IMG/VR virus record: IMGVR_UViG_3300028840_006907
Location: 64,001-128,000 of that record
Source of the DNA: a virus
Reading direction: 5' to 3' (one strand)
Length of the DNA: 64,000 nucleotides
Part shown: one piece after another, positions 6,924 to 35,227 of the stretch
Layout of the letters: each line of letters starts with the position of its first letter
Position numbering within the stretch: position 1 is the first letter of the stretch
The notes under the pieces: model-generated
What the model was told of the DNA's origin: nothing
What the model saw: the letters and a program-made list of their open reading frames with translations, nothing else
The model's database searches: none
Translations under genes and position numbers: made by a program

Positions 6924-7682
6924 TTGGAGACATCTGTGAAGTATAGCGTACTTGTACCCTACTATAAACGCCTAGGGCACCTACATAATACCTTTATTTC
7001 CTTTCTACACCATTATTCAGATAGAAATGATTATGAGGTTGTCATAGCAGAAGATTATAAAAATGTCCAGAATAAAAAAGACCATGACGGTCTATCAGAA
7101 ACCATTGAGAAATTCCGTGAAAAAATACCGATAATTCATTTAACTCTTTCTATGGAAACCTGGAATCCAGCTCATGGTTTTAATGAAGCTGCAAAGTGGG
7201 CTTCTGGTGAATATTTCGTTGTAACCAATCCAGAATGTTTCCATCAAGTGAACATACTGGCTGGACTCGATAAAGAATTTGAAGAAGACCCCAATGTCTA
7301 TGTTGTATGTGGTTGTATGAATTATGTCCGTTGTAATTTTTTTATTAAAAACTTTAATGATCTAAATGGAAAATTTCAGAGATGGTACCAACACTCAATA
7401 CATAGAGCAGCCCACTATCATTTCTGTTCAGCTATTTCAAAACAGAATTGGGTAAAAATAGGAGGATTCGATGAAGACTTTGCTATGGGTATAGCCTATG
7501 ATGATGTCGATTTTAAATTAAGCATTCAAAAAGCCAAGATACCCTTTCATATCCGGGATGACCTTCTTACTATACATATTGACCATGGTTCCTTCCCATC
7601 TCCTCCAAATGCTCAGAAATTAGTTAATCGAAATAGAATCACCTATCAAAGAAAATGGGAAGGAAGTAATGAATCTTACTAG
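6924..7682 (+). CDS. putative glycosyltransferase-like protein
   Basis: 252-aa ORF with non-ATG start (TTG 6924 or GTG 6936); weak GT-A-like features only. Confidence 0.35.
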   Translation: METSVKYSVLVPYYKRLGHLHNTFISFLHHYSDRNDYEVVIAEDYKNVQNKKDHDGLSETIEKFREKIPIIHLTLSMETWNPAHGFNEAAKWASGEYFVVTNPECFHQVNILAGLDKEFEEDPNVYVVCGCMNYVRCNFFIKNFNDLNGKFQRWYQHSIHRAAHYHFCSAISKQNWVKIGGFDEDFAMGIAYDDVDFKLSIQKAKIPFHIRDDLLTIHIDHGSFPSPPNAQKLVNRNRITYQRKWEGSNESY

Positions 7683-9762
7683 TTATACCGCAGCCGACAG
7701 TATCCCGATAAAATTGATTAAGAACTTTAAATTGTTAAAGTCCATGACAACAAAAGGAGTCATCTTACCAATCCATGTCCAGTTCATACCCACAAATAGA
7801 TGTAACATGAAATGTGGATTTTGTAGCTGTGCTGAAGATGACAGAAAAACAGAAATGTCCCTTAAAAATGCTAAGAAGATCATCAGAAAATTAAAAAAAC
7901 TCGGTACTCAATCCGTAACCATCACCGGAGGAGGAGAACCACTCCTTTATCCTCATCTCCAAGAATTGTTTTCTCTGTTTAAAGATGCCGGGATAAAAAT
8001 CGGTTTTGTTACCAATGGCCTCTTATTAGGTAAATGTACCTATGAAGATGTAACCTGGTGTCGGATTTCTAATTCTGATGAAAGAAAAATGGACATGGAC
8101 TATTATCACACAATAGCTTATGCTGTTGAAGATAACCCAAACGTGGACTGGGCCTTTAGTCATGTCGTTTCTCCAAAACCAAATATCTCCGAAATAAAAC
8201 GGATCATAGAATTTGCCAATCTCCATGATTTTACCCATGTCCGATTAGTAGCTGATCTATTGAATTATAAAGAAGTAGATTTAATGCAGTTAAAAATCAC
8301 TCTTCGAGATGAAAATGTCGATGATGATAAAGTCATCTATCAAAGTAGAAATACCCCGCTCAGAGGCGGAGACTGTTATATATGCTATCTTAAACCCATG
8401 ATAGGGGCTGACTGTAATGTGTACGCTTGTTGTTTAGAGGCTAATGAACCTGTATTAATCCAGAGAAATAACGAAAGGATGTATTTATCTATAAAGGATG
8501 TTGTTCCAGGGGATTATGCTTGTGAATATGGAAAGATTTTAAATGTGTTTCATAAAGAGGGTGAAGAAGGCTTGGAAATAGTTTTGCAAAATAATAGGAC
8601 TATTTATGTTTCGAAAGATCATCTTATGCTTAAATTGACAAACCCTGAAATTAGACATAAGAGAAAGAAGTTATTATCTGACTATGAATTAGATACAATA
8701 GAATCTTCTGAATTAAGAATTGGAGATTTACTTCCGGTCAAATATAAATATGATATTAGTGAAATAAAAGAAGATACTATATCTGAAGAAGAAGCAGAAT
8801 TAATAGGATATTATGTAGCTGAAGGTTGGTCCAATGAACGAACTTGTATAGTTGATAAAAAATATCCTACTAGAACTACCACTATAGGATTTATGCTAGG
8901 GAAAGAGTCAAGAGAATATATAAGAAGATTTGAAGAAATTTGTGATATTTTGAATCTAAATTTTTCTATGACTGAACGTAGAACTGGTATGCAGTATCAG
9001 ATAGGTGCACATAAACCCTACGATGACTTAATTGTACACTGTGGTAATAAAGCAGAATTAAAAAAGATCCCTCCTTTTATTTTAAACGGCTCTGATAAAA
9101 TAAAGTGGAAATTTATTCAAGGCTATTTTGGAGGTGACGGGAATTTTCAAACTCCTTCTAAAAGCTATGATGGTTTTAAAATGAGAATGAGTACTGTCAG
9201 TAGACAACTAGCTAATGATATAATTTATCTCTTTTGTACTTTAAATATTCATGCTTCTATGAGAGTTGAGAGACGTGAAGGAAAAATGATAATAGAAGGA
9301 AGAGAGGTAAATGCTAAAGATCGGTATCATATAAATATAGGGGGAGCCTATAATTTAGAAAAAGCCCCATTCCTAAATGTAATTCAAACAAAAGAAAGAA
9401 GTCCTAAAAGAGCCCTCGGTTTTTTGAAAGATGAGGATAAGGGCATTATGTTTGTACCAGTTAAAGAGATCAGAGAGAAAAAGTTAGGAAAATTAGTAGA
9501 CATTCAAGTGGAAGGTTCAAATAAATTTATATCTTCATTTGGTATAATAGTTCATAATTGTGGCGTCCAGTATGCTCTTAAAAAGCCTTCAAAGAATCTT
9601 CCTAAGAAACTGAGCCTAGGAAGTGCTTTTGATCTTGAGAAGATAATTGAGAACAGTAATAAGCCCCTGGACGGGAGCATGTGTTATCGATGCTATTATA
9701 GTAATTATAACAAGATACTAGGATCCATCCTGGATGATACCGATCATATGGAGTTTGTATGA
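7669..9762 (+). CDS. radical SAM protein interrupted by an intein
   Basis: CNMKCGFC (CxxxCxxC) Fe-S motif near N-terminus; about 376-aa insertion with intein hallmarks. Confidence 0.7.
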   Translation: MNLTSYTAADSIPIKLIKNFKLLKSMTTKGVILPIHVQFIPTNRCNMKCGFCSCAEDDRKTEMSLKNAKKIIRKLKKLGTQSVTITGGGEPLLYPHLQELFSLFKDAGIKIGFVTNGLLLGKCTYEDVTWCRISNSDERKMDMDYYHTIAYAVEDNPNVDWAFSHVVSPKPNISEIKRIIEFANLHDFTHVRLVADLLNYKEVDLMQLKITLRDENVDDDKVIYQSRNTPLRGGDCYICYLKPMIGADCNVYACCLEANEPVLIQRNNERMYLSIKDVVPGDYACEYGKILNVFHKEGEEGLEIVLQNNRTIYVSKDHLMLKLTNPEIRHKRKKLLSDYELDTIESSELRIGDLLPVKYKYDISEIKEDTISEEEAELIGYYVAEGWSNERTCIVDKKYPTRTTTIGFMLGKESREYIRRFEEICDILNLNFSMTERRTGMQYQIGAHKPYDDLIVHCGNKAELKKIPPFILNGSDKIKWKFIQGYFGGDGNFQTPSKSYDGFKMRMSTVSRQLANDIIYLFCTLNIHASMRVERREGKMIIEGREVNAKDRYHINIGGAYNLEKAPFLNVIQTKERSPKRALGFLKDEDKGIMFVPVKEIREKKLGKLVDIQVEGSNKFISSFGIIVHNCGVQYALKKPSKNLPKKLSLGSAFDLEKIIENSNKPLDGSMCYRCYYSNYNKILGSILDDTDHMEFV
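8431..9558 (+). mobile_element. intein with LAGLIDADG-type homing endonuclease domain
   Basis: Starts with Cys (CLEANEP), block-B-like SKDH, LAGLIDADG-like LIGYYVAEGW and FIQGYFGGDGNF, ends IIVHN followed by Cys. Confidence 0.6.
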
Positions 9763-10976: not shown

Positions 10977-11540
10977 TTATAGGGATTTATTTGCGTGTGG
11001 AAAAGGTTTAACCACAATTTCTCGATCCAGGAACTTGCACAATGTTGCATATTTATTTTTATCTTCAATATCTATGAGTAGGAATCGGGGTTTGTCTTTG
11101 AAGAACTCTATGATTTCTTCATTCCTCTTATGGTATCGATCTATTATTTCAGCTTTGTTCTCTGGAATAAATTCAATCTTCCATATCCAGTTATACATGA
11201 CTTGTGCATTTTTTAATTGAATCCAATTTAAAACTGAGTTAAACCATTTCTCGGGATCCCGGGTCAAATGAATGAAGTAGGCATCGGGGAACATATCATA
11301 GAGCATTTCATGACTCCCTTCTAAATTGAAAGGGATATCACAAAATAAATTGGCTGTATATTTTCTTAATCGAAAAGCTTTAAAAAGTTGAATCATATTT
11401 TCTTTGGAATGTTTAAGTCCACCTCCAAGATAGAGTCCATATGCTTTAGTAGAGGGAATAGGGTTGAAACCAAGCTTTTTTATGGCTTGTTCCATAGAGG
11501 TTGTACCGGTTTTATTTGAGCCTATACAAAAGACTTTCAT
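10977..11540 (-). CDS. sulfotransferase-family protein
   Basis: N-terminal GSNKTGTTS P-loop-like motif typical of sulfotransferases. Confidence 0.45.
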   Translation of the reverse strand: MKVFCIGSNKTGTTSMEQAIKKLGFNPIPSTKAYGLYLGGGLKHSKENMIQLFKAFRLRKYTANLFCDIPFNLEGSHEMLYDMFPDAYFIHLTRDPEKWFNSVLNWIQLKNAQVMYNWIWKIEFIPENKAEIIDRYHKRNEEIIEFFKDKPRFLLIDIEDKNKYATLCKFLDREIVVKPFPHANKSL

Positions 11541-11617
11541 TTATGTATGATCTTTTTCCCATCTTGCTCTGAACGATTCACTTTCTTCTTCTATCCATTT
11601 ATGGATTGTGTCATCAT

Positions 11618-11983
11618 TCACGTGGTTACCGGCTTCTCTTTCTTTTTTAAGGTGCTTCTCAATTTCCTTGATCTGGTCTTGCATAAATTCTTTTTGTCGT
11701 CCCATTCTTCCAGACCTCCCTTATTGAGAGTATCATTTTTAAGCGTTAAGTTCAAGTCTCTTAATGACATACATGGAACATCCCGTACTCGTTTGGAGTT
11801 CCATATAGGGCATACAGTATGATTACACCTATTAGGACCTAACCTACACTCGACATTAAAATGTCCAGGTTCTCCGGCATAGAGGAAATTTCGTTCTATG
11901 CAGTGCGCCTGGAATACCTGAAAAGGCATTATCTTTTCGACACTTACCCCGTTTTTATGTGATTTATTATTCATATTTTTCAT
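11618..11983 (-). CDS. hypothetical Cys/His-containing protein
   Basis: ORF-track start at 12127 lies inside the repeat array; trimmed to internal Met at 11983. Confidence 0.3.
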   Translation of the reverse strand: MKNMNNKSHKNGVSVEKIMPFQVFQAHCIERNFLYAGEPGHFNVECRLGPNRCNHTVCPIWNSKRVRDVPCMSLRDLNLTLKNDTLNKGGLEEWDDKKNLCKTRSRKLRSTLKKKEKPVTT

Positions 11984-12019
11984 TCTAGGAATGTAAAGTA
12001 TTAGAGGATTATTAAGGGG

Positions 12020-15018
12020 AGGGAAACCCCGCTCAGATGCAGGGAAGAAGATTTCATTAAGAAGTTTTAGGAAGAGCCCCGCAGAGGAGGAACCTCGCAA
12101 GATGCGGGGAAAAGGAACTTCAGGCAATTGGCTGGGATTAGCCCCGCGAAGGTGCGGGGAAAACAGTTTCCATGAACTATATTAGGGAGAGCCCCGTTGA
12201 CACGGGGAAAAACCCGTCTTTACTTAGTGAGATCGAGGAAGGAACAGCCCCGTTGATACGGGGATAAAATAATATGACTTTTACGAATCCTCTAGGGACA
12301 GCCCTGCAGAGTGCAGGGAAAAGTAACGTCTGGGAATTGTTTAGGATTAGCCCCGCGAAGGTGCGGGGAAAGCCATAGATTTTATATTGACACAGGAAAA
12401 ACCCCGGTATAGTCCGGGGAAAAGTACGTAATCAAGATGTAAGAGGATTAGACCCGGCGAGTCCGGGAAAAGATTGGCCCAATCACTATTAAGTAGGGTG
12501 GGATAGCCCCGCAGAATGCAGGGAATAGATGCCTCACTTCATACCACTGCGTCAACCCCAGTAGAGTCCGGGGAACATGAGTGTAAATCTCTGTCGTAGG
12601 TTCAACCCCGGAGAGATCCAGGGGAAATGGGTACAACTTTGTGTACAAGGGGTAGCCCCGGAGAAATCCGAGGAAAATGAGTGTAAATCTGTGTTGAGGG
12701 TCCAGCCCCGCTCAGTGCAGGGAATATTAAGGGTCAAAACCGGTTGCCCCTGCGTCAACCCCGGTGAAGTCCGGGGAACATGAGTGTAAATCTCTGTGGT
12801 AGGATCAACCCCGCAGAGTGCAGGGAAAAATTGAACTTTTTAATCAACCCTGTAACAGCCCCGGAGTCAGTTTTGACAAGTCCGGGGGAATATCACTTCG
12901 TAAAGGAGTGGCTGTCAAGGGGGCAACCCCACAGAGATGTGGGGGAAAGTAAGCCAACGTTCCGGCATAGGCATAGCCCCTGAATTTACAGAGGGCAATT
13001 TTTCCAGTGTCCAGAAGAAGATGCAGGGAGAACCCCGGAAAGTCCAGGGGAAAATGTGTCACAGAACAACTCTTTGTGATCTCCAGGGTGAACCTCGCAG
13101 AGGTGCGGGGGAAAAGTGTCAATGAATACCAGTATGAGTCAGCCCCGGTATAGCCCGGGAATAATTACTTCTAGTCTGATAGAAGGTGCAACCCCGGGAA
13201 GTCCGGGGAAATCGGTCATAGCCATCTGGACCAGGAAGAACCCCGGTGAGATCCGGGGAAAAGGACGTTTAAATCCTGACATAGTAGCTAACTGAGGCGT
13301 AGCTCCGGTCGGGTCAGCCCTGCAGAGAGCAGGGAACAAACATAGGTAATAAATCGGCACGTGACAGCCCCGCAGAGAGGCGGGGATATATAGCGTGAGT
13401 TGCAGGGTAAGGTTCAACCCTTGTTTACCAAGGGAAAAATACCGGCAGATAAGAATTTAGGATGACCCCCGGTGAAAGTCCGGGGAAAATAATTAATACG
13501 CAAAACAGCAGGGCCAGTCCCGCGAGATGCAGGGAATGTTCAGCCAGTTTGTGTAATATTTCAGGAGACGGTGGTGCAACCCTGTCAAGGACAGGGATAT
13601 GCAACATCTGTGGCTCTACGAGGATCAGCCCCGGCAAGTCCGGGGAATTATCTTTTTATAAATGCCAAAAATAACAGTTGGGAGGGGCCAATTCCGCTGA
13701 TGCAGAAAGACATTTCATAATTAATATATTTATGGAAGAGCCCCGGTGAAATCCGGGGAAGTCAAGTAATTACAGCTCGCTGACCACTGGGGGTAGCCCC
13801 GGTAAGATCCGGGGAAAAGTTTGTTTTGAAACAAACGCTAGGAACAGCCCCGCTCAGGTGCGGGAGAATCACTGCATATTTGGTTAATGGCCCCCCTGAG
13901 TCAATCCCGCTCAGGTGCGGGGAAAATAAAGAGATAGACTAATTCAATATGCAGGAAGAACCCCGCTATATGCAGGAAAATTTAAAAAGTATGGATATCT
14001 CCTTGAGTCAACCCCGGAGATCCAGGGAAATGTAGGCACTCGTTGTCCTTTGTCGAAGTGTGAAGGGCAAACCTCGTTGATACGAGGAACAAATTTAGTT
14101 TTACTTTTGAATAAAAGTGGTCAAGCCCCGCTCAGGTGCAGGGAATAGATAAGTATACCGACGATAGCCAGGACAGCACCTGTGGTTTAGCCCTGCATGT
14201 GCAGGGAATAGTTGAGTTGAAGATTGAAGAAAAAGATAAAGTAGGGTCAGCTCTGCATGTGCAGAGAATAGCCTTTCTTCAAGCGTTGACTTGGGAGTAG
14301 GTGGGGATCAGCCCTGCACATGCAGGGAATAGAATGGTGAATCAAATTCCATTTTGTCAAAGAACGGCGACAGCCCTGCCAGTGCAGGGAATATGATTTT
14401 AACGATGGTAAAATTGGGAAGGGGTCAGCCCTGCACATGCAGGGAATAGTCGCTAGTTCAAATCCAATCGCCCCGACAGGATCAGCCCTGCATACGCAGG
14501 GAATAGAAAATACTGACGATAAACTAGCGATATGGGATCAGCCCTGCATACGCAGGGATATAGCTTGACGAATGGCCGTTTTAATGCCAGGAGTAACCCC
14601 GCTGCGAGGAATAGTCATTTCAAATATATAGGTAAAGCCCCGCGAAAGAGCGGGGGTATAATATGGCGGATTTTGTTCTATTGGTGGAATCCGGGCCATC
14701 CCCGTAGATTGACACGGGGAGATCTTTTAGAAATCTACCAAGGTGCCTTTCCGGAGTCATCCCCGTATATACGGGGGAGATTTCAATTCAGGGAATTTCG
14801 GTACAAAATTGGTCGGTTTATCCCCGTATACACGGGGAATATTGTTTCAATAGGGCATAGCAGATCTAGGATCGGGGAATCCCCGCAGGGGCGGGGAACA
14901 TCTCGGATTTATTAATCAAATTCAAACGTTTTTCGGGGAATCCCCGCAGGGGCGGGGAACATTGTTTTAAGAGGTGGTAGTTACCTCGTAGGGGAATCCC
15001 CGCAGGGGCGGGGAACAT
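12020..15018 (-). CRISPR. CRISPR array 1: about 55 hairpin repeat units, three identical leader-proximal repeats, progressively divergent distal repeats
   Basis: Leader-proximal repeat (minus strand) ATGTTCCCCGCCCCTGCGGGGATTCCCC at 14874-14901, 14935-14962, 14991-15018 with 33- and 28-nt spacers; periodic CCCCGC/GCGGGG-type hairpins back to about 12020. Confidence 0.8.
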
Positions 15019-15127
15019 ACTAAGTCATAATGCCATTCAAATCAAAGGTTTATAGGAACCCTAATTTTCTACCAAAGAAAAATGTACTTGTCATGTATAA
15101 ATGTCAAAGAGCGTCAGAGAGAAATCC
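15019..15127 (-). promoter_or_regulatory. CRISPR leader 1 with conserved ~50-bp block shared with leader 2
   Basis: 15058-15112 nearly identical to 22627-22677; contains TTGACA on the minus strand. Confidence 0.5.
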
Positions 15128-17359
15128 CTAGTGGATATACCGAATCCATTCATATCGAATTTTCATCGTTTTATAAGGAGCTTTTTTTCTCCCTGGAAAT
15201 ATGTTTCCTTCAAAAAGGAAAAATTTTTGAACAATTTTAAATTCAGCGTTTGATGGTGTCAAGCTCTGTGGTGCATAATCCGAACGCCAGTAATTATTAC
15301 AATATATAAATTTTTCTTCTCTGTCTTTTTGTATAAGGCCCGGAAACACCACTAAAACTATCTTTTCGTTTTCAATAACAATATCCCCTTGATAAATAGC
15401 TATTTCTAAATCCAGACCATCCTGCTCTATCACACGAGCATATTTCGAGAGTTTCCCATCAATCTTTACTTTAGCTTTAGGGGGAATATCAAAAGTTATC
15501 CATTCACCTTTTATGTCCTTAATGCTTTGAATAGGTTTTTTAACTGGAATTTCTTGAAAGACATGATCTTGGTATTCTGCTTTTTTAAGGATTTCTCCAT
15601 CTTTTTCCATATTAAGCAATAAAGCCTTTTCCATGATGTCTTTAAGTTCATAGAGATCTTTTTCAGTTAAGGGCTCTTTTGTTCCGAATACGATGGAACC
15701 TACATTCTCTAATCGAGCGATTTTATCAAAACCCTGTTTCCGGACAAAGTCTATGGTAATATGTTCTATTTTTCTATTTCTTGAAAGTCTTATGATTCTT
15801 ACAAATTCAGTTTTAATTGTGTCTTTGAAATTATCAAAACTTAAATGATCTTCTACGTAGGGATGATACAAATCCGCTATAAGACTTAATAAAATTTCTA
15901 TGTCTTCAGGTTTATCCTGTTTACGGTTGTAATCATAAGCTTTAATAATTTCTTGTCTCATTTCCATTAATATATCAGGAGCCATTATTTCACTTAAACT
16001 GGTAGATCCTTTTTTGTCCCGATAAAAGGGAGCTGTTGGAAGTAAGGGAATCCTGATAGCAGCACAAAGTTCTGACATTACAATTGAGGTTAAGAACAAA
16101 TTCAATCTGTCTGAATATAATGCCCTGATATTATTACGTTCTTCTTTTTTAATAGGTGGAACATAAATGTATAACCATATTTTATCTTTTTTAGGGTAAC
16201 ATCTGAAAATACGAAACATTATTTGAGAGAAGGTCACCTGACTCTTTCCATAACTTGTATTATGTAAAACAGCAGCAGGAGGCCAATCATACCCTTCATA
16301 GAATATTCTGCAAGATACGGCGACCCAGTATTTTTTATGATTACGTCTCAATAACTCTCTATTTTTTTTCTGAGTTTCCGGTGTGACTAAATCCAGTACT
16401 TTGGACGCAGGATATATTTCGTGAATAGCTTTTAAATATTTTTTAAGGGTTCCTTCCTCTCTGAACCGGTTCCCCATGTCAGGTAATATGACAATGTGTC
16501 TTTGATCTTTGTGCTCTTTCATATATCTAATGATCTGAGTAAGGGGATCTTTCCTATAGTGAGTGAAACGGAAATTGAATTCTTTGATTTTTATGATTGA
16601 GAGATAGTCATTTAATGGGATAACCCATTTTTCAAAATGATGTTTATAAGCATTGGGGACTATTTCTCCTCTGTCTGTGCGGTGGTAAGTAGCTGTATAA
16701 AAATTTACGTTACAAGTAGGTTCATGGATGGTACATACATCTCTGACAAAATCACCCAAATGAGTGGAATCTAGTGGGGTTGATTTTGAATGATGGCATT
16801 CATCTACATGTACAGTTAAATTTCTAAGGGCTTTCTTTTTTTCATAGTTGGTTAATTTTTCCCAGGTCATGACAAACCCTCTATGGGTAGCTGTAGCAAT
16901 AGGGCCTGTTATATGTTTTTCATTGTACGGGTATTTTCGAGGATCTGCTAAAAGGAATTCTTTAAGTCCTTTAATGGATTGAGGGTTTTCACTATTGAAT
17001 TTATGTTCTTTTGGTACTTCCCACAATCTTACCATACCTTTATATTTGATTTTTATTTGTCTATTTTGGGATCTGCAGAAATTTTCACCTATTTCTATTG
17101 TTGGTGCGATAAAGATATGTTTTCGAGTATTTTTAGATATTATGATTTCATCCAGGGATATGCATACTGCTAAAAAAGTTTTGCCGACTCCCCCTGGTGC
17201 ATCAAAGATCATGTATCTGAATTTTTTCCCATATTCTTTTGCATTGCATTGCCAGCCAGAGGGTATCATGATCCCTGATTCAAGTTTTTTATTATAGGTA
17301 CCAAGGTCAACCGGTTCTATTTTAATAGATTGCTGGAAAAGCGGTAATAGCTTTTTCAT
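15128..17359 (-). CDS. SF2 helicase, Cas3-like helicase module without HD nuclease domain
   Basis: Walker A DAPGGVGKT and DECHH box; in-frame stop 18 codons upstream excludes an N-terminal extension; no HD dipeptide. Confidence 0.6.
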   Translation of the reverse strand: MKKLLPLFQQSIKIEPVDLGTYNKKLESGIMIPSGWQCNAKEYGKKFRYMIFDAPGGVGKTFLAVCISLDEIIISKNTRKHIFIAPTIEIGENFCRSQNRQIKIKYKGMVRLWEVPKEHKFNSENPQSIKGLKEFLLADPRKYPYNEKHITGPIATATHRGFVMTWEKLTNYEKKKALRNLTVHVDECHHSKSTPLDSTHLGDFVRDVCTIHEPTCNVNFYTATYHRTDRGEIVPNAYKHHFEKWVIPLNDYLSIIKIKEFNFRFTHYRKDPLTQIIRYMKEHKDQRHIVILPDMGNRFREEGTLKKYLKAIHEIYPASKVLDLVTPETQKKNRELLRRNHKKYWVAVSCRIFYEGYDWPPAAVLHNTSYGKSQVTFSQIMFRIFRCYPKKDKIWLYIYVPPIKKEERNNIRALYSDRLNLFLTSIVMSELCAAIRIPLLPTAPFYRDKKGSTSLSEIMAPDILMEMRQEIIKAYDYNRKQDKPEDIEILLSLIADLYHPYVEDHLSFDNFKDTIKTEFVRIIRLSRNRKIEHITIDFVRKQGFDKIARLENVGSIVFGTKEPLTEKDLYELKDIMEKALLLNMEKDGEILKKAEYQDHVFQEIPVKKPIQSIKDIKGEWITFDIPPKAKVKIDGKLSKYARVIEQDGLDLEIAIYQGDIVIENEKIVLVVFPGLIQKDREEKFIYCNNYWRSDYAPQSLTPSNAEFKIVQKFFLFEGNIFPGRKKAPYKTMKIRYEWIRYIH

Positions 17360-17382
17360 TGTCTTTTTCCTCTCAAATAAGT

Positions 17383-17412
17383 CCTGGAAAGCCTTTTCAG
17401 GGGCTTTCCAGG
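17383..17412 (-). other. 11-bp stem-loop between micro-ORF and helicase gene
   Basis: CCTGGAAAGCC / GGCTTTCCAGG inverted repeat with 8-nt loop, about 25 nt upstream of helicase ATG. Confidence 0.4.
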
Positions 17413-17444
17413 ATTAATGTACTGTGTATTCTATATCAACACTT

Positions 17445-17600
17445 TCAATCGTTTTTATCAATCTCCGTGGCTAATACCGACATAAATGACATTCCGGTTC
17501 CTCCTGGTAATTCAATAATAGAAGGTCTTTTGATGTTCTCTTCTAAATTCCTAGAAGCGAGTTGCCAAGAATAGGCTTTTATAGTTTTTGTATTATTCAT
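17445..17600 (-). CDS. micro-ORF (51 aa) between cas6e and helicase
   Basis: GGAGAT 8 nt upstream of ATG at 17600; no known motif. Confidence 0.25.
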   Translation of the reverse strand: MNNTKTIKAYSWQLASRNLEENIKRPSIIELPGGTGMSFMSVLATEIDKND

Positions 17601-17628
17601 TTTAAAATCTCCATATAAAAGGTTTATT

Positions 17629-18273
17629 TTAATAAGATTTATACGGTGCAATAAGCATCATACCACATCCGAAACCTTTACTCTTACCAATTCCATTATA
17701 AATAGTATTCACAAAAAGATTTTTATTGACTACCTGAAGGACTCCTCGTAAATCAATACTGAAAAAAGATACAACTTTACCATCTTTTTTTTTGAATTTA
17801 CAGAATTGAAAAGATTGAACGGAATGCTTTTGAATCATATTTTTAAAACCGTAACTTTGGCCACGTTTCTGAAGCCAATTCTTTGAGGATTCGTGAGCAA
17901 TGAAATTCCAATTATAGGGTTCATCAAGAACTTTCATTTCATTTGCCAGATCCGTCATGATTGAAACCTTTTTCCTGGTTTTCAATTTACAAACTTCGGC
18001 ATTGAGTCTGAGATCGTATTGAAGAAATATTCCAGATTTTAAATTATTTAAATCGAATACTTTTGTTTGTGTAGTGTATTCGTCCTCTGGAGGATTTGGT
18101 TTCTTTTTTGATATGATATAAAGTTCACCATTATAGAGATAATAAAGGAAATCTCTTACCCTGTTAGATCTTTGATCACCAAAAAATTCCCAGACTTTTT
18201 GATGAAGCTCATATATACCTTCGGTGGGAGAATATCTTCTCAAGCTGTCACTGTAAATTTTACTCAGAAACAT
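17629..18273 (-). CDS. cas6e: Cas6e (CasE) endoribonuclease
   Basis: Start set at internal Met (GGAGG RBS); MFLSKIY N-terminus and C-terminal GIGKSKGFGCGMM resemble E. coli CasE. Confidence 0.75.
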   Translation of the reverse strand: MFLSKIYSDSLRRYSPTEGIYELHQKVWEFFGDQRSNRVRDFLYYLYNGELYIISKKKPNPPEDEYTTQTKVFDLNNLKSGIFLQYDLRLNAEVCKLKTRKKVSIMTDLANEMKVLDEPYNWNFIAHESSKNWLQKRGQSYGFKNMIQKHSVQSFQFCKFKKKDGKVVSFFSIDLRGVLQVVNKNLFVNTIYNGIGKSKGFGCGMMLIAPYKSY

Positions 18274-18910
18274 TCGATACCTCCTTCCATCCCATATACT
18301 CAATTCGGGATCGGTATTGTTTGGGACCGGTTACCTGATCAAAACGTTGATTGCTTTTTACTATTTTGATACTGGTATCGGTACCTTCCCAAAATATTCG
18401 GTTCTTTTCACGCCCTTTAAGACTACCATTAAGAAATTCAGGAAGAGAGTACTGTTCAAACGCCTCTGAGAGGCTCTCAGCCTTAACGATCTTAGGATCG
18501 GGTGGTATGTCATAGGAACAGCATTTCCTTCCAAGAAAGGGGGTATAGATGGGCCTATTAAGGGCTTCCATTATTTTCTTCAAAGTATAGGGACAGTTTT
18601 CATTCTCCCATATACATACGGTAAAGATGGCATTGACTAGGTAAAATCTATTCGAGACAATTCCTGGTCCGACTCTGACAATATGGAAATCTTTTAGAAT
18701 AGTACCAGGATTATCTTCCCTACAGGCAAATCCTAGTTGGGCAATCTGAGTTAATTCTTTCACCATTTCTCTTGAGACTCCAAGAGAAGCAGCGATTAAC
18801 CCGCTTACGCCAGATTTGGTAGGGTGATCATCTGTCTTTCGGGTATTACCCTGAAGGGGGAGACCCCAGGCGGATAGAGTACCCGAAAGAAGGAATAATA
18901 AATAATTCAT
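18260..18910 (-). CDS. cas5e: Cas5e (CasD)
   Basis: MNYLLFLLSGTLSAWG and YTPFLGRK resemble E. coli CasD MRSYLILRLAGPMQAWG and YTPYLGRR. Confidence 0.8.
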   Translation of the reverse strand: MNYLLFLLSGTLSAWGLPLQGNTRKTDDHPTKSGVSGLIAASLGVSREMVKELTQIAQLGFACREDNPGTILKDFHIVRVGPGIVSNRFYLVNAIFTVCIWENENCPYTLKKIMEALNRPIYTPFLGRKCCSYDIPPDPKIVKAESLSEAFEQYSLPEFLNGSLKGREKNRIFWEGTDTSIKIVKSNQRFDQVTGPKQYRSRIEYMGWKEVSNVSE

Positions 18911-18933
18911 AATATTATAACTCCTGGTAACAA

Positions 18934-20019
18934 TTAGAAATCGATGAATTTAATAAGTTCGTTAAGTGATCCTTCTTTTGTGAGTACATTCAAGATCCTA
19001 TAATCCATTTCATGGTAACATGAATCAAAACTACTTTTCATGTCAAGAAGGGCTTTGACAGCATTTTCCATAACCGCAGGACCTTTAATAGGAGTATGGA
19101 AGGCTTGACAGAGACTTCGTGGGGCAGTTGGAGCTTTTTCGATCATAACGAATGCTGGCCATGTTTGACTATCAGCACATCTGTTTTTATTAGCTGAGGG
19201 GGATGAAGTGGTTAATACTTCGACTATCTGTCGGATGGTTTTGATAGCTAGTTCTTTATTACCTTGAAGATTTTTCGTTAAGAGCTTGGAATTGATTACA
19301 AAGAAACTATAATAGACACCCTGGGTAAAATAGAAATTATCTAGGTGACCTGAACCTTTGGTTCCTTCTAATCCAAGGTTATCGGTAGCTGTAAAATAGT
19401 CGGTTTGGACAGATCCTATATCATTGACAGTAAAAGCGAAATTTGAGGACAGTGAAGCTTCAACATCATATTGGGGCAGTTTTGCAATCATGCGACCGGT
19501 AAGGGCTGTTCTGATTCCTGTATTTTCTTTTAAAAAGAAGAATTCTTGATCAGTGGGTTTATGCCCCTCAATAATTTTGTCAATCAGTTCTTCAATATGT
19601 TGTCTTTCGCTCGGTTGAATTTTAATGGTTTCGGTTTTAAGAAGATCAACCTTTTTTTTCTTTTTCTTTGTATTTTTATCATCTTCTTTTTCAGTGTGCT
19701 TTTTGATATCAACAAAAGTACCAATAAATTTAAATGCGTATTCTTCAGCTTTTTTAGGTGATATTCCACCATCAATTAATCTTTTCTCGACATATTTTCC
19801 AATAAGAGGAGTCTGAAGACCTATATCGATTTCGCACCTTTCAAATAGAGCCTTGTTTAAATCATATTTTCGATTTTGTGAAGACGAATAACCTCGGTTG
19901 GTATCATTAAGTTTCATTGTTTTAGGACGTCCGTCCTGGCCTCGGTTTATGCTAGATACAGCTACACCAGTGAGAAGGTGAATTAACCAGTAGGGGTCTT
20001 TAATAATAGTTTTAGACAT
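18934..20019 (-). CDS. cas7e: Cas7e (CasC) backbone subunit
   Basis: 361 aa; N-terminal SSINRGQDG...SSQ pattern like Cas7e SxLNRDD...SSQ. Confidence 0.75.
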   Translation of the reverse strand: MSKTIIKDPYWLIHLLTGVAVSSINRGQDGRPKTMKLNDTNRGYSSSQNRKYDLNKALFERCEIDIGLQTPLIGKYVEKRLIDGGISPKKAEEYAFKFIGTFVDIKKHTEKEDDKNTKKKKKKVDLLKTETIKIQPSERQHIEELIDKIIEGHKPTDQEFFFLKENTGIRTALTGRMIAKLPQYDVEASLSSNFAFTVNDIGSVQTDYFTATDNLGLEGTKGSGHLDNFYFTQGVYYSFFVINSKLLTKNLQGNKELAIKTIRQIVEVLTTSSPSANKNRCADSQTWPAFVMIEKAPTAPRSLCQAFHTPIKGPAVMENAVKALLDMKSSFDSCYHEMDYRILNVLTKEGSLNELIKFIDF

Positions 20020-20045
20020 AAATACTCCTTGATATTTATTATTTA

Positions 20046-21989
20046 TTATATGTTATTTGAATATTCTCTTTCCCAGTAGAACTTGACATCTTTGCTCCAG
20101 TGGGCATACCCTTCCATGAAACTGATGATGTTAAATCCTTCCATTCGAGAAACAACATCAGCAAATACTTTCCAGTTTTTTTGTATATCCGTTTTATTGA
20201 AACTCATCATTTCGTCAACATGTCGGCGGTTAATTTTTTGAGAACCCATTTGGGCACCGAAAGATTGAGAAAAATCCAGATCCTTAGCTTTAAAAACAAT
20301 TAGTAGAAGAGGTACGAAAAGAGTCTTCATATCTTCTGATCTTAAAGCAGGGAAATGCATAGACATTTCTAAAATAAAATTCAAATAAAGGTCTTCATGT
20401 TTTAAGATATCGATGTCAAAACATCGGGTAAATACCCTATGTTTTTCTGTATTTCTAATAGTCCCGTACCAGGACAGGAATGGTTTGGTAAAGACCTGGT
20501 TAAAATGAGGTAGGTTTAATTTCCTGTATTCGATATGGGCGAAATTCTCATATTCTAATGGTTGTAGTTTAAGAGGTTTAACAACTTTTTTATTTAAGGT
20601 TTCGATAAATTGTTCCTTAAAATATTTCTGTAAACCTCTCTTTTCAGTACCTACATTTTTTTCAAATGTATCGAAAGCTTTAACTACCATCTTTTCCAAC
20701 CATTTTTCGATATTATGATTCTTGAGAACTTCATAGAAGTATTCTTCAGTTTCTGTCAGAAATTCGTGAAATATTAAAGGTTCGGTTTTATCAGTTCCCC
20801 AGAACTTTCTTATATAATTACAGGTATACCATCCTATAAGATATGAGTGTTCTCTGATATTTAAAGTAAACGCACTATCTTTATAGAGTTCTTCTGGGAT
20901 ATCGAATTTATTTTCCTCCCATCCAAAGAGTTTGGCTTTAGCCATATTATAACCGAAAGTCCATAATCCGAAATCAGTTATTCCAAGATATTCTCGGTTC
21001 TCCATGAAATGACTCACCACTAAAGCTGGAGTTAATTTTTTAGCTGGTAGTAGATAGGTCACAAGATCGAGATGGCTGGTAAAGTCCAGGGGTTTCCGGA
21101 AACCTGTTTCTTTGCCTTTTATAATGGGTGAAAGGATATGACGTGGTTTGACATAACAGTTACCATAATTCCTCGTTTTTATCTTTCTAACCATTAATTT
21201 GGAATGATTGCCACAGATAGTACATGATTCATCAAATTTATCAAAGATAAGATGAATACGTAGAGGCATTTCCCAGAGCGGGTAATAAGGATTCATCTCA
21301 TCCAGGGAAACAGTAGCTTTGTTTTTACTATCAACGGTATCACTAAGCCATGGGAGTGTTACACCTTTTGGATTTCCTCCGAATTCAAACATGGTCTTTT
21401 TAATAATAACATTAGACCATATTGTTTCCCATAACGTGGAACCGGTAATAATAGTGGTAAGAGAACCATTGGCACCGGCTGTTATCGAAGTACGGTATCC
21501 TTGGCCTCCCATAATGGCACTGAGTTGATTAAGATAAAGGGCAATTGTAGCACAGGATTGGCAAAAAGTATGTATCTTTGCTTTTTGGAAGAAATCTTTA
21601 CCAGCTTTAATTGTCGCTGTCCCTGGAGTATCAAAGAGGAGATTACCAACATTTACGATTCTTTCAAGGTCCTGTGGCCGTTTATCCTGTAAAAAACGAG
21701 GACCTTTGCCATCTAGTTCAAAGAGTTTTGGTTTAAGTTTTTCTAGGATGGCTTTTTGGTTTGGTGCTTTTTTGAATAGTTTTTTCCATTCTTTCTTACT
21801 TGTAGGAGCAAGATAAGTGTTGAAAAAACCTATGAGAAGCCGTACACCTACAGCATTGAAATCGGGTCTACCGAAATCGAGAGCTATTATAGGGTTATTA
21901 GGTTTTGAAGTTATTTTGTAGGGTGGAATGTTTTCCCTGGTACCGTCTTTTCGGATGACGGGGATCCAAGGGTCCTTAATTACATTCAT
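20046..21989 (-). CDS. cas8e: Cas8e (Cse1) large subunit with about 145-aa C-terminal extension
   Basis: MNVIKDPWIPV and CQSCATIALY match Cse1 DNWIPV and CGGCTAIALF; GGAGGT RBS. Confidence 0.8.
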   Translation of the reverse strand: MNVIKDPWIPVIRKDGTRENIPPYKITSKPNNPIIALDFGRPDFNAVGVRLLIGFFNTYLAPTSKKEWKKLFKKAPNQKAILEKLKPKLFELDGKGPRFLQDKRPQDLERIVNVGNLLFDTPGTATIKAGKDFFQKAKIHTFCQSCATIALYLNQLSAIMGGQGYRTSITAGANGSLTTIITGSTLWETIWSNVIIKKTMFEFGGNPKGVTLPWLSDTVDSKNKATVSLDEMNPYYPLWEMPLRIHLIFDKFDESCTICGNHSKLMVRKIKTRNYGNCYVKPRHILSPIIKGKETGFRKPLDFTSHLDLVTYLLPAKKLTPALVVSHFMENREYLGITDFGLWTFGYNMAKAKLFGWEENKFDIPEELYKDSAFTLNIREHSYLIGWYTCNYIRKFWGTDKTEPLIFHEFLTETEEYFYEVLKNHNIEKWLEKMVVKAFDTFEKNVGTEKRGLQKYFKEQFIETLNKKVVKPLKLQPLEYENFAHIEYRKLNLPHFNQVFTKPFLSWYGTIRNTEKHRVFTRCFDIDILKHEDLYLNFILEMSMHFPALRSEDMKTLFVPLLLIVFKAKDLDFSQSFGAQMGSQKINRRHVDEMMSFNKTDIQKNWKVFADVVSRMEGFNIISFMEGYAHWSKDVKFYWEREYSNNI

Positions 21990-22210
21990 ATGATACCTCC
22001 GCGATTTATGAATGGTTGCGGAAATTTAATTATTTATGTTTTTACTCAACTTATTTATGTTTTTTTGCTTAGCTGAGACTTTGATTTAATTTTTTAATTA
22101 ACCCATTAGTTATAAAGTTAATTATAATCTAAAATAAATATAAATGCAACATTTTTTCAAGTACTTTATATATAACTATAATATTTCGAATTGTTTATAG
22201 CATGAGAAAT

Positions 22211-22236
22211 ATTTCCTCCGTTTACACGGAGGAAAT
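22211..22236. other. perfect 10-bp palindromic hairpin between array 2 and cas8e
   Basis: ATTTCCTCCG TTTACA CGGAGGAAAT. Confidence 0.35.
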
Positions 22237-22264
22237 TTAGGATTATATCAGAGATGGGCTCTGA

Positions 22265-22586
22265 GACAGCCCCGGTAAAGTCCAGGGAAATAAAAATTAG
22301 TGATAATTCGGGAATCAGCAGGAGGAGAGCATCAGCCCTGCGTATGCGGGGAATAGTGTTATCGTCTTACAGGATGTAAAGCAGAGACAGCCCCGCGTAT
22401 GCGGGGAATAGAAATTAATACATCTCATAAAATCTAGCATCAGCCCCGCGTATGCGGGGAATAGTTATTTATCTATACTTCCTACAACTCCCATAACGCA
22501 TCAGCCCCGCGTATGCGGGGAATAGCTCGTTGGTTTTCCCATTCCACAAAAGTTCAACGCATCAGCCCCGCGTATGCGGGGAATAG
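22265..22586 (-). CRISPR. CRISPR array 2: five 28-bp repeats plus a degenerate terminal repeat, four spacers
   Basis: Repeat (minus strand) CTATTCCCCGCATACGCGGGGCTGATGC at 22329, 22384, 22437, 22498, 22559; spacers 27, 25, 33, 33 nt. Confidence 0.85.
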
Positions 22587-22690
22587 ACTATAATATAATT
22601 AGTTGAAAATCAGAGAGTTACAAAGACCCTAATTTTCTACCAAAAAAAGTACTTGCCGTTTATAAATGTCAAAGAGCTTATCTTTAAAGG
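22587..22690 (-). promoter_or_regulatory. CRISPR leader 2
   Basis: 22627-22677 nearly identical to the array-1 leader block. Confidence 0.5.
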
Positions 22691-22857
22691 TATAAATCCT
22701 CTTCATCCTCAGGAGCCAGATCTATATCTGAAAGAGTTCTGCTCCCACCGAAATCTAATTCTAATACTTCATCTTCTCCACCTGTATTAAAAAAATCATC
22801 TTCTTCACTTGGCTCTTTAAGAATCTCATCAGCATCGTATTCTTCGATTGGTAACAT
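22684..22857 (-). CDS. small highly acidic protein (57 aa)
   Basis: Hand-translated MLPIEEYDADEILKEPSEEDD...; GAGGGG RBS; stop abuts leader 2. Confidence 0.45.
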   Translation of the reverse strand: MLPIEEYDADEILKEPSEEDDFFNTGGEDEVLELDFGGSRTLSDIDLAPEDEEDLYL

Positions 22858-22872
22858 AACATTTCCCCTCTT

Positions 22873-23316
22873 TTAATTGTTTCCTTCATTGATATAAAGA
22901 AATCCAGTTCTTTCCAATGTTAAATCTAAATCATTCTCTTTAAGTTTAAAGTTTTTTATTGTGTCTTGCACATCTTTTTTTCCATTCATACATACCCATA
23001 ATGCGTGTTGAAAGAATTCATCATTATCAGGTAACTTTGAGATGTACTTATGTGTAGGTGGAGGACAGTTTTCAGGTTTAATATCCTTTTTTAAAGCCAG
23101 TGCGGTTTTACCGCTATTAAATACATGTAATGGTAATCCTAAGAGATATACCCGACTTTTCATCTCTCTCAATGTCTGTTCTGCCTGGGATAATGTCATT
23201 TCATTGTTTTTCATTAATTCCATGATAGTTTGAGCCACAACCATTGCATTGTTATATTGTGGTTGATCTATAATTTTATTCATCTTTTTTAATACTTCTT
23301 TTATTATATCTGGCAT
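22873..23316 (-). CDS. hypothetical protein
   Basis: 147-aa ORF in a co-directional gene string. Confidence 0.5.
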   Translation of the reverse strand: MPDIIKEVLKKMNKIIDQPQYNNAMVVAQTIMELMKNNEMTLSQAEQTLREMKSRVYLLGLPLHVFNSGKTALALKKDIKPENCPPPTHKYISKLPDNDEFFQHALWVCMNGKKDVQDTIKNFKLKENDLDLTLERTGFLYINEGNN

Positions 23317-27032: not shown

Positions 27033-27322
27033 AATGCCTTCTTTCTTCTTTTTCGTCTATGTTCTAAAAGTATTTTTCCCATTTCATAATTTGTGATTTC
27101 TTTGGCACCCATTTCAATAGCTCTTTTTCTTCGGCTTTCTACCAAATCGAAATGAATAAAACCGGTTCTACTTTTTTGTATCCAGTTTTTTTTCATTCCA
27201 ATCTTTTCTGCAAATTCGAGTAATTCTTTAATACTAATATCAGAAAACATGTGACAGTTTTTCACATATCTTCCACGAAGTTTCCAAAGGTTATCTTTTA
27301 ATTCATCTACATATATTGTCAT
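27029..27322 (-). CDS. hypothetical protein (DUF4031-like?)
   Basis: 97 aa; YVDEL...CHM...HFDL pattern, recalled family only. Confidence 0.3.
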   Translation of the reverse strand: MTIYVDELKDNLWKLRGRYVKNCHMFSDISIKELLEFAEKIGMKKNWIQKSRTGFIHFDLVESRRKRAIEMGAKEITNYEMGKILLEHRRKRRKKAL

Positions 27323-27849
27323 GGTAATGTTAATCCGAATTTGTCAAAAATTCCTATGATTGCTTCAGCATTACCCATAGCATCATCTAGTGGATTATGG
27401 GTATGTTTTGTTTTTCGAAACTTCTTTTTCCAGTTCCTTTGAGCGTTGAATTTTTTTACAAGCCCACTATATAGATCCCCGATTCTCCTGGCACTATGTC
27501 CAAAAGGATTGTTATTACAAAAATGCCATAGATAATAATTTATGAATTGCCAGTCGAAAACGGGGTTATCCGAAATGAATACAATTCCTTGTTCTTTTTC
27601 ATTTATATTTTTTAACCATTGGTGAAATTTTTCTATTACTTTTTTGGGTGGAGGGAATTTTTTAACTTCTTTATATGAGAATCCTGAGACAACTAGAGCT
27701 GATTCGATAAATTTATTTGTTATAGGGCGTAATTGACTATAAAAAGTCCTGTTTAATTCTGGCTCTACAACTACCGCTCCGAAACAGACCATGGAATAAT
27801 CGCCGGGGCATGGACCGTCAGCTTCAATATCTACTGAGATAAGTTTCAT
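27319..27849 (-). CDS. putative 3'-5' exonuclease (DEDD-like)
   Basis: N-terminal VDIEADGP motif. Confidence 0.45.
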   Translation of the reverse strand: MKLISVDIEADGPCPGDYSMVCFGAVVVEPELNRTFYSQLRPITNKFIESALVVSGFSYKEVKKFPPPKKVIEKFHQWLKNINEKEQGIVFISDNPVFDWQFINYYLWHFCNNNPFGHSARRIGDLYSGLVKKFNAQRNWKKKFRKTKHTHNPLDDAMGNAEAIIGIFDKFGLTLP

Positions 27850-29102: not shown

Positions 29103-29312
29103 CTATTTCAACATTTTAAAATGCTTAAAGGTATCCCAAAAGAAATTTATTGTACATATGATAAAATAGCCAGGTATCAATTTTAATAAGAGTTCTTTTT
29201 TTGTTTTATATTCTCCTAACCATAAATGCCCAAGAACAACAGTCCATTGCATTAATAAAAAATTCGCTATTACAAATAATACCCATACTAATCCTATAGA
29301 CATACTTACCAC
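29103..29312 (-). CDS. small membrane protein
   Basis: 69 aa, hydrophobic. Confidence 0.3.
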   Translation of the reverse strand: MVSMSIGLVWVLFVIANFLLMQWTVVLGHLWLGEYKTKKELLLKLIPGYFIICTINFFWDTFKHFKMLK

Positions 29313-30025
29313 ATTTCCCCAATGGCCTTTTTCTGTTTATTGGTTAATTTATAAACCAGCTTGCAATTAATACATTTCATTCTAGTTATATTCCCAAATA
29401 TATCATAAAGATCATCAGTTACCTTTCCAATCTTGTGACAAGAGTTTTGCTCACCTGCAGAAATGGTCCCATCGATATTAACTGATGGAGTGCACATTTT
29501 ACCCATCATTGCAAGACCCATCATAACTTGTGAAAGAGAGTTCGCCCCTGAATTTCGGCATAAGGATCTAAGGTTAAAACAATTAGGTGCTTTAGAGGTT
29601 ATTGGAAGTTCATTTTTAATGGCTCTTCCAAAGGGTGTTATCACTCTAAGCTGATGCTCATATGTAATATTAGGATGTTGTATAATAGGTACTTCTTTTG
29701 GATAGTACCGAGGATCATTGGTAATTTGAATATTTATTCCAATTTGAATGATTTCTTTTTTTAATGTTTCATCTTCAAGAAAAGTACCATTCGATAAAAG
29801 TGCTGGCATCAAACCTATATTTTTGGCTCTATTAATCATTTCAATAATGTCTGGATGTGAAGTTGGCTCTCCGCCTGTAAGCATTATTATAGGCATTTCA
29901 AGATTTTTTAAATATCGCAATGTCTGGTCATATGTTTTAAGATCCATATGTTCACCTTCCGGACATGCATTCACTGAACAATGAATGCAATTCATATGGC
30001 ATTTTTCAGTGACTCTTACGAGCAT
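29306..30025 (-). CDS. radical SAM protein
   Basis: CHMNCIHC (CxxxCxxC) near N-terminus, Gly-rich LTGGEP. Confidence 0.6.
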   Translation of the reverse strand: MLVRVTEKCHMNCIHCSVNACPEGEHMDLKTYDQTLRYLKNLEMPIIMLTGGEPTSHPDIIEMINRAKNIGLMPALLSNGTFLEDETLKKEIIQIGINIQITNDPRYYPKEVPIIQHPNITYEHQLRVITPFGRAIKNELPITSKAPNCFNLRSLCRNSGANSLSQVMMGLAMMGKMCTPSVNIDGTISAGEQNSCHKIGKVTDDLYDIFGNITRMKCINCKLVYKLTNKQKKAIGEMW

Positions 30026-35221: not shown

Positions 35222-35227
35222 GTATTT

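Follow-up and report, generated by a model that had tools for sequence, protein, structure and literature searches.

The window analyzed here, a 64,000-nt stretch comprising bases 64001-128000 of the 469,617-bp record GCA_016840655.1 JAEORW010000001.1, encodes a type I-E Cascade whose four effector genes are followed by the gene of a superfamily 2 (SF2) helicase that is not a Cas3, with a CRISPR array on each side of the operon. We tentatively propose that this unit is a virus-borne type I-E derivative that carries out nuclease-free, helicase-coupled interference and works like type IV-A, a reading that we regard as a serious possibility though short of probable. All coordinates are those of the window, which together with ~15 kb of additional flank, whose content was read from precomputed Pfam tables, makes up the ~79 kb examined of the ~470-kb genome; loci and proteins of relatives are designated Lxxx and Pxxxx, respectively.

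A Type I-E Effector Operon Followed by a Helicase Gene

The products of four minus-strand genes are Cas8e, Cas7e, Cas5e, and Cas6e, identified at E-values that run from 1e-26 to 1e-55, and these proteins match I-E models only across Pfam, TIGR, and PADLOC. An earlier reading of this DNA from sequence only (hereafter the sequence-only reading) had proposed these four identities in canonical I-E order, I-E-type repeats on both sides of the operon, and a helicase gene after cas6e in place of cas1-cas2. The significant profile matches to Cas families for all four proteins, the repeats found on both flanks, and the SF2 helicase gene at 15128-17359 agree with each of these proposals. The genes of Cas1 and Cas2 normally adjoin cas6e in type I-E systems. 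The operon and the helicase gene comprise the following features:

20046-21989, minus strand: cas8e with a predicted cas11-like fusion, 647 aa; Pfam CRISPR_Cse1 4.6e-48, TIGR02547 1.6e-33, PADLOC Cas8e 3.9e-55
18934-20019, minus strand: cas7e, 361 aa; Cas_CT1975 1.1e-52, TIGR01869 2.4e-45, PADLOC Cas7e 2.5e-53
18260-18910, minus strand: cas5e, 216 aa, without an HNH insertion; TIGR01868 1.7e-35, Cas_Cas5d 1e-26
17629-18273, minus strand: cas6e, 214 aa with the MFLSKIY ATG as start; TIGR01907 3.9e-34
17445-17600, minus strand: 51-aa open reading frame (ORF), left over from the N-terminal part of a second helicase; it matches the P0008 N-terminus at 41% identity over 44 aa
17382-17413, minus strand: terminator-like hairpin (12-bp stem) separating the 51-aa remnant ORF from the helicase gene
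15128-17359, minus strand: Cascade-linked SF2 DExH helicase, 743 aa; ResIII 8.9e-07, above the Pfam cut-off

Cas8e scores 164.9 bits in Pfam (cut-off 24.7) and 116.4 bits with TIGR02547 (cut-off 70), Cas5e scores 122.8 bits against a cut-off of 69, and Cas6e scores 118.8 bits against a cut-off of 45; Cas7e reaches 180 bits in Pfam but, at 155.9 bits, falls under the 178-bit cut-off of TIGR01869. The cas6e ORF spans 17629-18303, and its probable start is the ATG at 18273. Given that Cas6e aligns with Escherichia coli CasE through the catalytic histidine ('yelHqkvW' with 'YQLHQGLW') and the glycine-rich loop (GIGKSKGFGCG with GIGPAKSMGCG), both of which are kept, processing of CRISPR RNA (crRNA) is probably intact. 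The 51-aa remnant ORF has lost the Walker A lysine (GTGMS) and has no Pfam match, and the protein that it resembles, P0008, is a member of a non-CRISPR clade.

Conservation of the Helicase within the Module

The helicase has intact motifs I (GxGKT), II (DECHH), III (TAT), and VI (QxxxRxxR), which are invariant across the clade, and is composed of a core, a middle region made of helices, and a β-rich C-terminal domain specific to the clade (residues ~600-743). This last domain contains only scattered invariant residues, with no conserved acidic/histidine or nuclease-like cluster, and we identified no HD or other nuclease signature in the protein. In a profile search of solved structures the best match is archaeal XPB/Rad25 (6e-05), and RIG-I-like and DEAD-box chains are also matched; 'SSL2' phage helicases are among the fold matches. 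Assignment of the helicase as Cas3' was rejected on scores of 13.8 bits with cas3_core (cut-off 102.45) and E=0.006 with PADLOC Cas3, and there is no Cas3 among its solved-structure profile matches at E<=1. PADLOC likewise gives no DinG match for this protein.

With E<=1e-3 as threshold the wider helicase family has 1180 representative clusters, of which only four extend their alignment over the final ~130 residues as far as the profile end; with E<=1e-30 it has 437. A search of 5.8 billion clusters yielded only eight with the helicase, and seven of these belong to the Cascade-linked clade; an alignment-based second homolog search returned nothing new. Distant relatives are encoded on other large phage contigs, with no Cas genes within 10 kb on the contigs examined. 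In all six relatives with examined contigs (L003, L004, L005, L023/L024, and L026), at 33-59% helicase identity, the helicase gene follows cas8e-cas7e-cas5e-cas6e either directly or after one small gene, and an array lies beyond the helicase in the window, L003, L005, and L023. Given that the helicase gene always follows the cas genes in this close clade while the genes flanking the module differ between lineages, we conclude that the helicase is a conserved component of the module and not a chance neighbor. We identified no relatives in INPHARED and no Cas8e relative in IMG/VR, where only distant helicase relatives without Cas neighbors occur; the system is rare.

Three of the relatives (L004, L005, and L026) have additional genes. 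One of ~200 aa (9396-10004 in L004), whose stop overlaps the helicase start, encodes the Rossmann-like motifs CYLTLCG, GIDRD, and IYLDTTNF; another of ~110 aa, located after the helicase (12289-12618 in L004), encodes two helix-turn-helix-like repeats and ends in QQIAAxRAHxTMGTY; and a multi-winged-helix regulator is encoded upstream of cas8e. No family or solved relative was found for the ~200-aa and ~110-aa genes. The window is without all three genes and has the 51-aa helicase remnant and the hairpin in their place, and no remnant of the ~200-aa gene was identified in it.

A Predicted Cas11-Like Domain in Cas8e

The sequence-only reading had noted the absence of a separate cas11 gene; no free gene is present in the locus, but a Cas11-like domain appears to be present, fused to Cas8e as judged by its fold. 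Cse1 models cover approximately residues 1-375 of the 647-aa Cas8e (Pfam match at residues 2-375). The AlphaFold2 model of the protein, with a predicted local distance difference test (pLDDT) score of 91.7, is laid out as a Cse1 body (to residue ~470), a four-helix bundle, and an extra all-helical domain (residues ~480-647). The best 20 Foldseek matches to this model are Cse1 chains, then Cse2/CasB chains. Among the latter, the E. coli Cse2 chain 5h9e_B has a template modeling (TM) score of 0.70 over 149 of 151 residues with a probability of 1.0, and the C-terminal ~165 residues of Cas8e match Cse2/CasB structures with TM-scores of 0.6-0.7 and probabilities of 0.96-1.0. This similarity of fold suggests that the C-terminus of Cas8e is a fused Cas11-like (Cse2) domain. 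We detected no Cse2 sequence signal in this region with Pfam, with a profile search of solved structures, or with hhalign against a natural Cse1-Cse2 fusion, and there is no conserved internal methionine suggesting a separately translated Cas11. Among the top matches, the long forms of Cas8e (647-664 aa) are confined to this clade; a Pfam-recognised Cse1-Cse2 fusion also occurs elsewhere (P0090), and cas8-cas11 fusions have been reported in HNH variants (PMC10910872).

Leaders, Repeats, and Spacers of the Two Arrays

Array 2 lies upstream of cas8e and array 1 downstream of the helicase gene. Both are read on the minus strand, which corrects a first reading of their orientation, and the whole unit from ~22693 to 12019 is co-directional:

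22587-22693, minus strand: leader of array 2; conserved block GCTCTTTGACAT...AAGTAC...TTTGGTAGAAAATT...TTTAGT
22207-22586, minus strand: array 2, five near-identical repeats (CTATTCCCCGCATACGCGGGGCTGATGCG) followed by two degenerate units
15019-15125, minus strand: leader of array 1, with the block shared with the leader of array 2
12019-15018, minus strand: array 1, ~57 units, with the repeat variants grouped in blocks

The two leaders, each of ~100 nt, are alike (families D13 and D17, 71-89% identity), and their core TCTTTGACA is invariant across the window and the relatives L005, L023, and L003. The measured spacers of array 2 are 32, 32, 24, and 24 nt in length, and its last unit doubles as a terminator-like hairpin (22236-22211). 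The repeats have the I-E layout, as seen in a comparison of CTATT-CCCCGC-ATAC-GCGGGG-CTGATGCG with the E. coli repeat GAGTT-CCCCGC-GCCA-GCGGGG-ATAAACCG. Leader-proximal units consist of 29-nt hairpin repeats and 32-nt spacers; distal units have repeats of 28-33 nt and spacers of 19-27 nt.

The repeats of array 1 are strongly diversified, with 22 different stem combinations among 58 units, and their hairpin is kept by compensatory changes. We chose a stem-anchored count, since loops of unequal length misalign the 5' halves of the stems in MAFFT/RNAalifold. By this count the stem forms 5.90 of 6 pairs with its own partner versus 4.95 +/- 0.07 with shuffled partners (2000 shuffles, maximum 5.17), the choice of units by a hairpin scan inflating the value of 5.90 somewhat; the same units are also found as plain direct repeats. 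At pair 6 the compensatory types are CG (29), GC (18), and TA (7). The handle keeps the E. coli pattern at three conserved positions, T2, C6, and C7.

Spacer lengths in array 1, where repeat boundaries are uncertain by 1-2 nt, fall into three classes, with 20 spacers of 18-20 nt, 18 of 22-28 nt, and 12 of 30-35 nt, none of 21 or 29 nt, and peaks near 19-20, 25-27, and 31-33 nt; the long spacers are near the leader and the short ones distal. A similar gradient is seen in L023, in which 12 uniform 29-nt repeats with 32-nt spacers adjoin the leader and are followed by degenerate, closely spaced units. Spacers measure 24-32 nt in L005 and 15-19 nt in L003. Most spacers are unique. Array 1 contains three copies of the spacer motif ACAGAGATTTACACTC (12548-12830), inside duplicated 85-nt segments, and variants of it are found in the array of L003 (3470-3600), whose helicase is only 59% identical; recurrence of this motif in diverged phages suggests selection on that guide.

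Several other observations concern the arrays and their borders. Array 1 contains units with the usual stem but a far longer loop (12856-12891; CCCCCGGA, 15 nt, TCCGGGG), and in a long-loop unit of L003 (~3465-3505) the loop contains the conserved spacer motif; a search of 11500-23000 gave no Rfam match. A 57-aa protein whose gene (22684-22857, minus strand) adjoins the array 2 leader on its upstream side is extremely acidic, being rich in D and E, and could be a DNA mimic or anti-defence protein. Immediately downstream of array 1, a small cysteine-rich protein (11618-11990, minus strand; …FQAHCIERNFLYAG…ECRLGPNRCN…CPIWNS…) is encoded, which is conserved after the array in L003 as well (3780-3990); a sulfotransferase gene comes next.

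Absence of Nuclease and Adaptation Genes near the Operon

The sequence-only reading had found neither cas1 nor cas2 and no HD nuclease in the locus, and the wider analysis bears this out. Models of Cas1, Cas2, and Cas4 (PADLOC, Pfam) have no match among the 59 other window ORFs of at least 90 aa, no Cas families are listed in the Pfam tables of the flank, and no protein of the cas locus has an HD domain; no adjacent cas1, cas2, or cas3-HD gene was found outside the region first described within the ~79 kb. Among the same 59 ORFs, Cas3 models give only a generic HD match (E=9e-4) to a YhaM-like protein. Given that neither Cas3 nor Cas1-Cas2 was found in the ~79 kb, this is not a complete type I-E system. 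Two proteins encoded on the cas8e side of the operon were considered as possible partners:

31317-32270, minus strand: OB-fold and HD-domain protein resembling YhaM; NF010007 3.1e-32, under the 460-bit equivalog cut-off
27322-27849, minus strand: DEDDh/RNase T-type exonuclease; PADLOC 'Effector Exonuclease' 2.6e-39, Cas-associated DEDDh 8.9e-08

The former is ~9 kb from cas8e and was rejected as a Cas3'', as it fits the model of the YhaM exoribonuclease and matches Cas3-HD only at E~1e-3. The latter, positioned by way of the L001 gene call for Pfam RNase_T, is encoded 5 kb upstream of cas8e; a partnership of DEDDh exonucleases with I-E adaptation is known. Neither protein appears in the gene tables of L004, L005, L023, and L026. 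Membership in the HNH-Cascades was also rejected, with no HNH family match in Cas8e or Cas5e and an ordinary Cas5e length of 216 aa.

These proteins bear on an alternative that we consider unlikely, in which the helicase, recruited by Cascade, would unwind the target and a separate nuclease of phage or host would cut the exposed strands, leading to degradation as by a split Cas3'/Cas3''. The closest solved-structure sequence matches of the helicase are chains of XPB (6p4o, 6p4f), a protein that works with the nuclease Bax1 in archaea, and candidate nucleases could be sought in the conserved ~200-aa gene with a stop overlapping the helicase start or in the exonuclease and HD protein 5-9 kb away in the window. 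However, neither the window nor L003 or L023/L024 has the ~200-aa gene, for which no nuclease family or solved relative could be detected, the HD protein is better described by the YhaM model than by Cas3-HD, even at a sub-cut-off score, and both it and the exonuclease are missing from the relatives' gene tables noted above.

Spacer Targets and Acquisition

Spacer targets were found neither in the window with its arrays masked, nor in 500 kb of retrieved loci, nor in INPHARED phages for the arrays of the window and L023; five spacers compared with IMG/VR have no target there, and one spacer compared with JGI metagenomes matched only the same phage. For the leader-proximal repeats, no matching host array was found in 185,579 species genomes.

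The sequence-only reading held that the system cannot adapt, a point that our analysis does not establish. Given the conserved leaders and the runs of identical repeats with 32-nt spacers next to them, 12 units long in L023, the pattern looks like spacer acquisition at the leader end, and we posit that new spacers are probably added there by Cas1-Cas2 supplied in trans. A more extensive dependence on the host, which we judge improbable, would have the phage Cascade borrow both Cas3 and Cas1-Cas2 of a host I-E system, with the phage helicase serving an accessory or other role. The effectors are bona fide I-E family members, the leader-proximal units are typical of I-E in both repeat and spacer length, and type IV-A3 uses host I-E adaptation proteins in trans (PMC11656645); nevertheless, the survey of species genomes returned no host array with such repeats, and strict retention of the helicase in the module argues that helicase function comes from the phage.

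A Proposed Model of Helicase-Coupled Interference

Nuclease-free, helicase-coupled interference, the reading that we favor, would proceed as follows. The conserved leaders would drive minus-strand transcription of both arrays, and Cas6e would cut the repeat hairpins to yield crRNAs, each of which would join Cas5e, a filament of Cas7e, and a single Cas8e-Cas11 fusion protein to form a Cascade. The length of this complex would be set by the spacer, with ~4, 5, or 6 Cas7 subunits for ~20, 26, or 32 nt. Cascade would then bind matching double-stranded DNA and open an R-loop, at which the dedicated SF2 helicase would be recruited instead of Cas3, probably via its clade-specific C-terminal domain. 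ATP-driven translocation from the R-loop would block or strip the transcription and replication machinery on the target, which may be a competing phage or a host gene.

Parts of this model have precedents. A huge-phage I-C variant carries a helicase instead of Cas3 (Al-Shayeb et al. 2020, PMC7162821); in type IV-A, nuclease-free silencing and acquisition in trans are documented (PMC11656645), and translocation by CasDinG serves as the model for helicase-coupled silencing (PMC11656645, PMC11127173). In E. coli, a spacer cut by 12 nt (to 20 nt) gives a complex of Cse2(1)Cas7(4)Cas5Cas6e, and a cut of 6 nt gives one Cas7 fewer (PMC5159557). The single fused Cas11 domain and the dominant class of 19-20-nt spacers would therefore fit one consistent picture with the E. 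coli short-spacer stoichiometry. We accordingly raise, as a more speculative possibility that we would not call likely, an undescribed I-E derivative that has captured a helicase unrelated to Cas3, that combines one Cas11 with 19-20-nt spacers, that produces graded 'mini-Cascades' of ~4, 5, and 6 Cas7 from one array, and that silences competitors or host genes without a nuclease.

A number of points weigh against helicase-coupled silencing. The terminator-like hairpin at 17382-17413 parts the helicase gene from the cas genes in the window, and the ~200-aa gene that L004, L005, and L026 carry in overlap with the helicase start could encode a nuclease partner. The ~79 kb seen belong to a 470-kb genome, elsewhere in which cas3, cas1-cas2, or a partner nuclease could lie. 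The helicase was modeled with low confidence (pLDDT 67), and the folds that it matches are those of generic SF2 proteins, so docking through the C-terminal domain is a guess; the assignment of Cas11 is by fold only. No protospacer was found for any spacer, which leaves neither a protospacer adjacent motif nor a target class, and the system is known here from sequence and structure models alone.

A simpler role, DNA binding only, would make Cascade a roadblock and the helicase an adjacent passenger from replication or recombination. In its favor are the hairpin and the helicase-remnant ORF between cas6e and the helicase gene and the size of the wider helicase family, which at 437 representative clusters (E<=1e-30) is not linked to CRISPR where contigs were examined. 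We nevertheless find it quite improbable: in the window, L003, L005, and L023 the helicase gene is inside the CRISPR-cas unit, between cas6e and the leader and array; the linkage persists although the helicases share just 33-59% identity and the flanking genes differ; and the linked clade has its own C-terminal domain. RNA anti-CRISPRs soak up host CRISPR components, and the 22 stem variants among 58 units of array 1 could mimic many host repeats while no spacer has a target, but a decoy in which variant repeats and Cas proteins occupy host I-E components and guide nothing is very improbable in view of the full effector gene set with an intact Cas6e active site, the conserved 5' handle positions important for Cas5/Cas7 binding, the mostly unique spacers with one motif shared by two diverged phages, and the lack of any host array found with these repeats.

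Comparison with Known Systems

The module shares with canonical type I-E of E. coli the families and order of Cas8e, Cas7e, Cas5e, and Cas6e, a predicted Cas11-like fold, 29-nt hairpin repeats, leader-proximal spacers of 32 nt, and a handle of the form xTxxxCCx as in ATAAACCG. In contrast to the canonical system, no Cas3, Cas1, or Cas2 was found nearby, it includes a non-Cas3 helicase in the unit, it appears to have one fused Cas11 domain rather than two free subunits, many of its spacers are 19-27 nt, its repeats are strongly diversified, and its carrier is a phage-like genome of ~470 kb.

Type IV-A systems, whose silencing and acquisition in trans are documented (PMC11656645, PMC11127173), are similar in being carried on mobile elements, in having no effector nuclease or adaptation module, and in combining a Cas6-processed crRNA ribonucleoprotein with a dedicated SF2 helicase. 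Membership in type IV-A was rejected: the effectors match I-E models and include no Csf1, Csf2, or Csf3, and the helicase is ResIII/XPB-like with no DinG match, which places the module outside type IV. The presence of Cas8e and of a putative Cas11-like domain is a further difference.

The huge-phage I-C variant is likewise a type I derivative without Cas1/Cas2 in which a helicase replaces Cas3 (PMC7162821), but it has no Cas6, processing being carried out by Cas5d, whereas the module described here is of type I-E with Cas6e and a predicted Cas8e-Cas11 fusion. The HNH-Cascades (I-E with Cas5-HNH and I-F1 with Cas8-HNH; Altae-Tran et al. 2023) are also type I systems without Cas3, some with fused cas8-cas11 (PMC10910872), and HNH-Cascade Cas8 chains (8yb6_J, 8zlu_C) are among the Foldseek matches of Cas8e; unlike them, our module carries a helicase, and its Cas8 and 216-aa Cas5 are free of HNH and other nuclease domains. 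The helicase itself resembles XPB/Rad25 (SSL2, COG1061-type) in its ResIII match and in having archaeal XPB RecA2 domains as best matches, but this similarity is limited to the helicase core, and the C-terminal domain has no identified relative. We found no description of an I-E system with such a helicase in the searchable literature, which did not cover Al-Shayeb et al. (2022, Cell).

The Carrier Genome

The sequence of the window is also present on JGI contigs of 388,651 and 469,541 bp, and the G+C content of the region is near 0.33. The window encodes 21 transfer RNAs (tRNAs) in three clusters and one transfer-messenger RNA (tmRNA), which occupy four regions:

34426-35822: tRNA cluster or tmRNA region
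47873-48282: tRNA cluster or tmRNA region
53795-55328: tRNA cluster or tmRNA region
60768-63431: tRNA cluster or tmRNA region

The predicted tag of the tmRNA is unusual (…ALNLAAIHQAEEAVV). Small co-directional ORFs without family matches occur in long runs in both window and flanks, and the region encodes HNH endonucleases, an intein-bearing radical SAM protein, and an amidase and has several PHROG matches. The system had been called virus-borne by the sequence-only reading, and the region does look viral by its tRNAs, its tmRNA, its runs of small ORFs, and its HNH, intein, and amidase genes with PHROG matches; a check for viral hallmark genes gave less, the ~79 kb showing neither a capsid nor a terminase gene and just one weak 'portal' PHROG match (1.1e-10) without an assigned ORF. 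At 469,617 bp the record exceeds the size criterion of >200 kb for huge (jumbo) phages. We infer, with good support though not by demonstration, that the carrier is a huge phage.

Other genes of the window include a 1514-aa ORF (2341-6885, plus strand) with no Pfam or PHROG match, which has a similarly placed 1540-aa counterpart in L003, and two radical SAM proteins (7669-9762, plus strand, and 29306-30025, minus strand), the larger of which carries an intein with a LAGLIDADG domain. PADLOC reports viperin-like (pVip) matches of 7.5e-15 in two window ORFs, presumably these two radical SAM proteins.

Implications

If helicase-coupled interference is borne out, this module would represent another independent recruitment of a helicase beside Cas3, CasDinG, and RecD and a further independent swap of the Cascade helicase-nuclease, which would strengthen the view that helicase coupling, and not cleavage, is a recurring solution of mobile elements. 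Its single predicted Cas11 domain and its spacers of 20, 26, and 32 nt would offer a natural test of Cascade size versus spacer length, for which stoichiometries have so far been obtained only with engineered E. coli crRNAs. A four-gene Cascade with one helicase and no DNA shredding could serve as a compact programmable repressor or translocase loader. For phage biology, a long-lived array whose repeats have diverged while preserving their structure would provide a record of evolution in a system without adaptation genes of its own.

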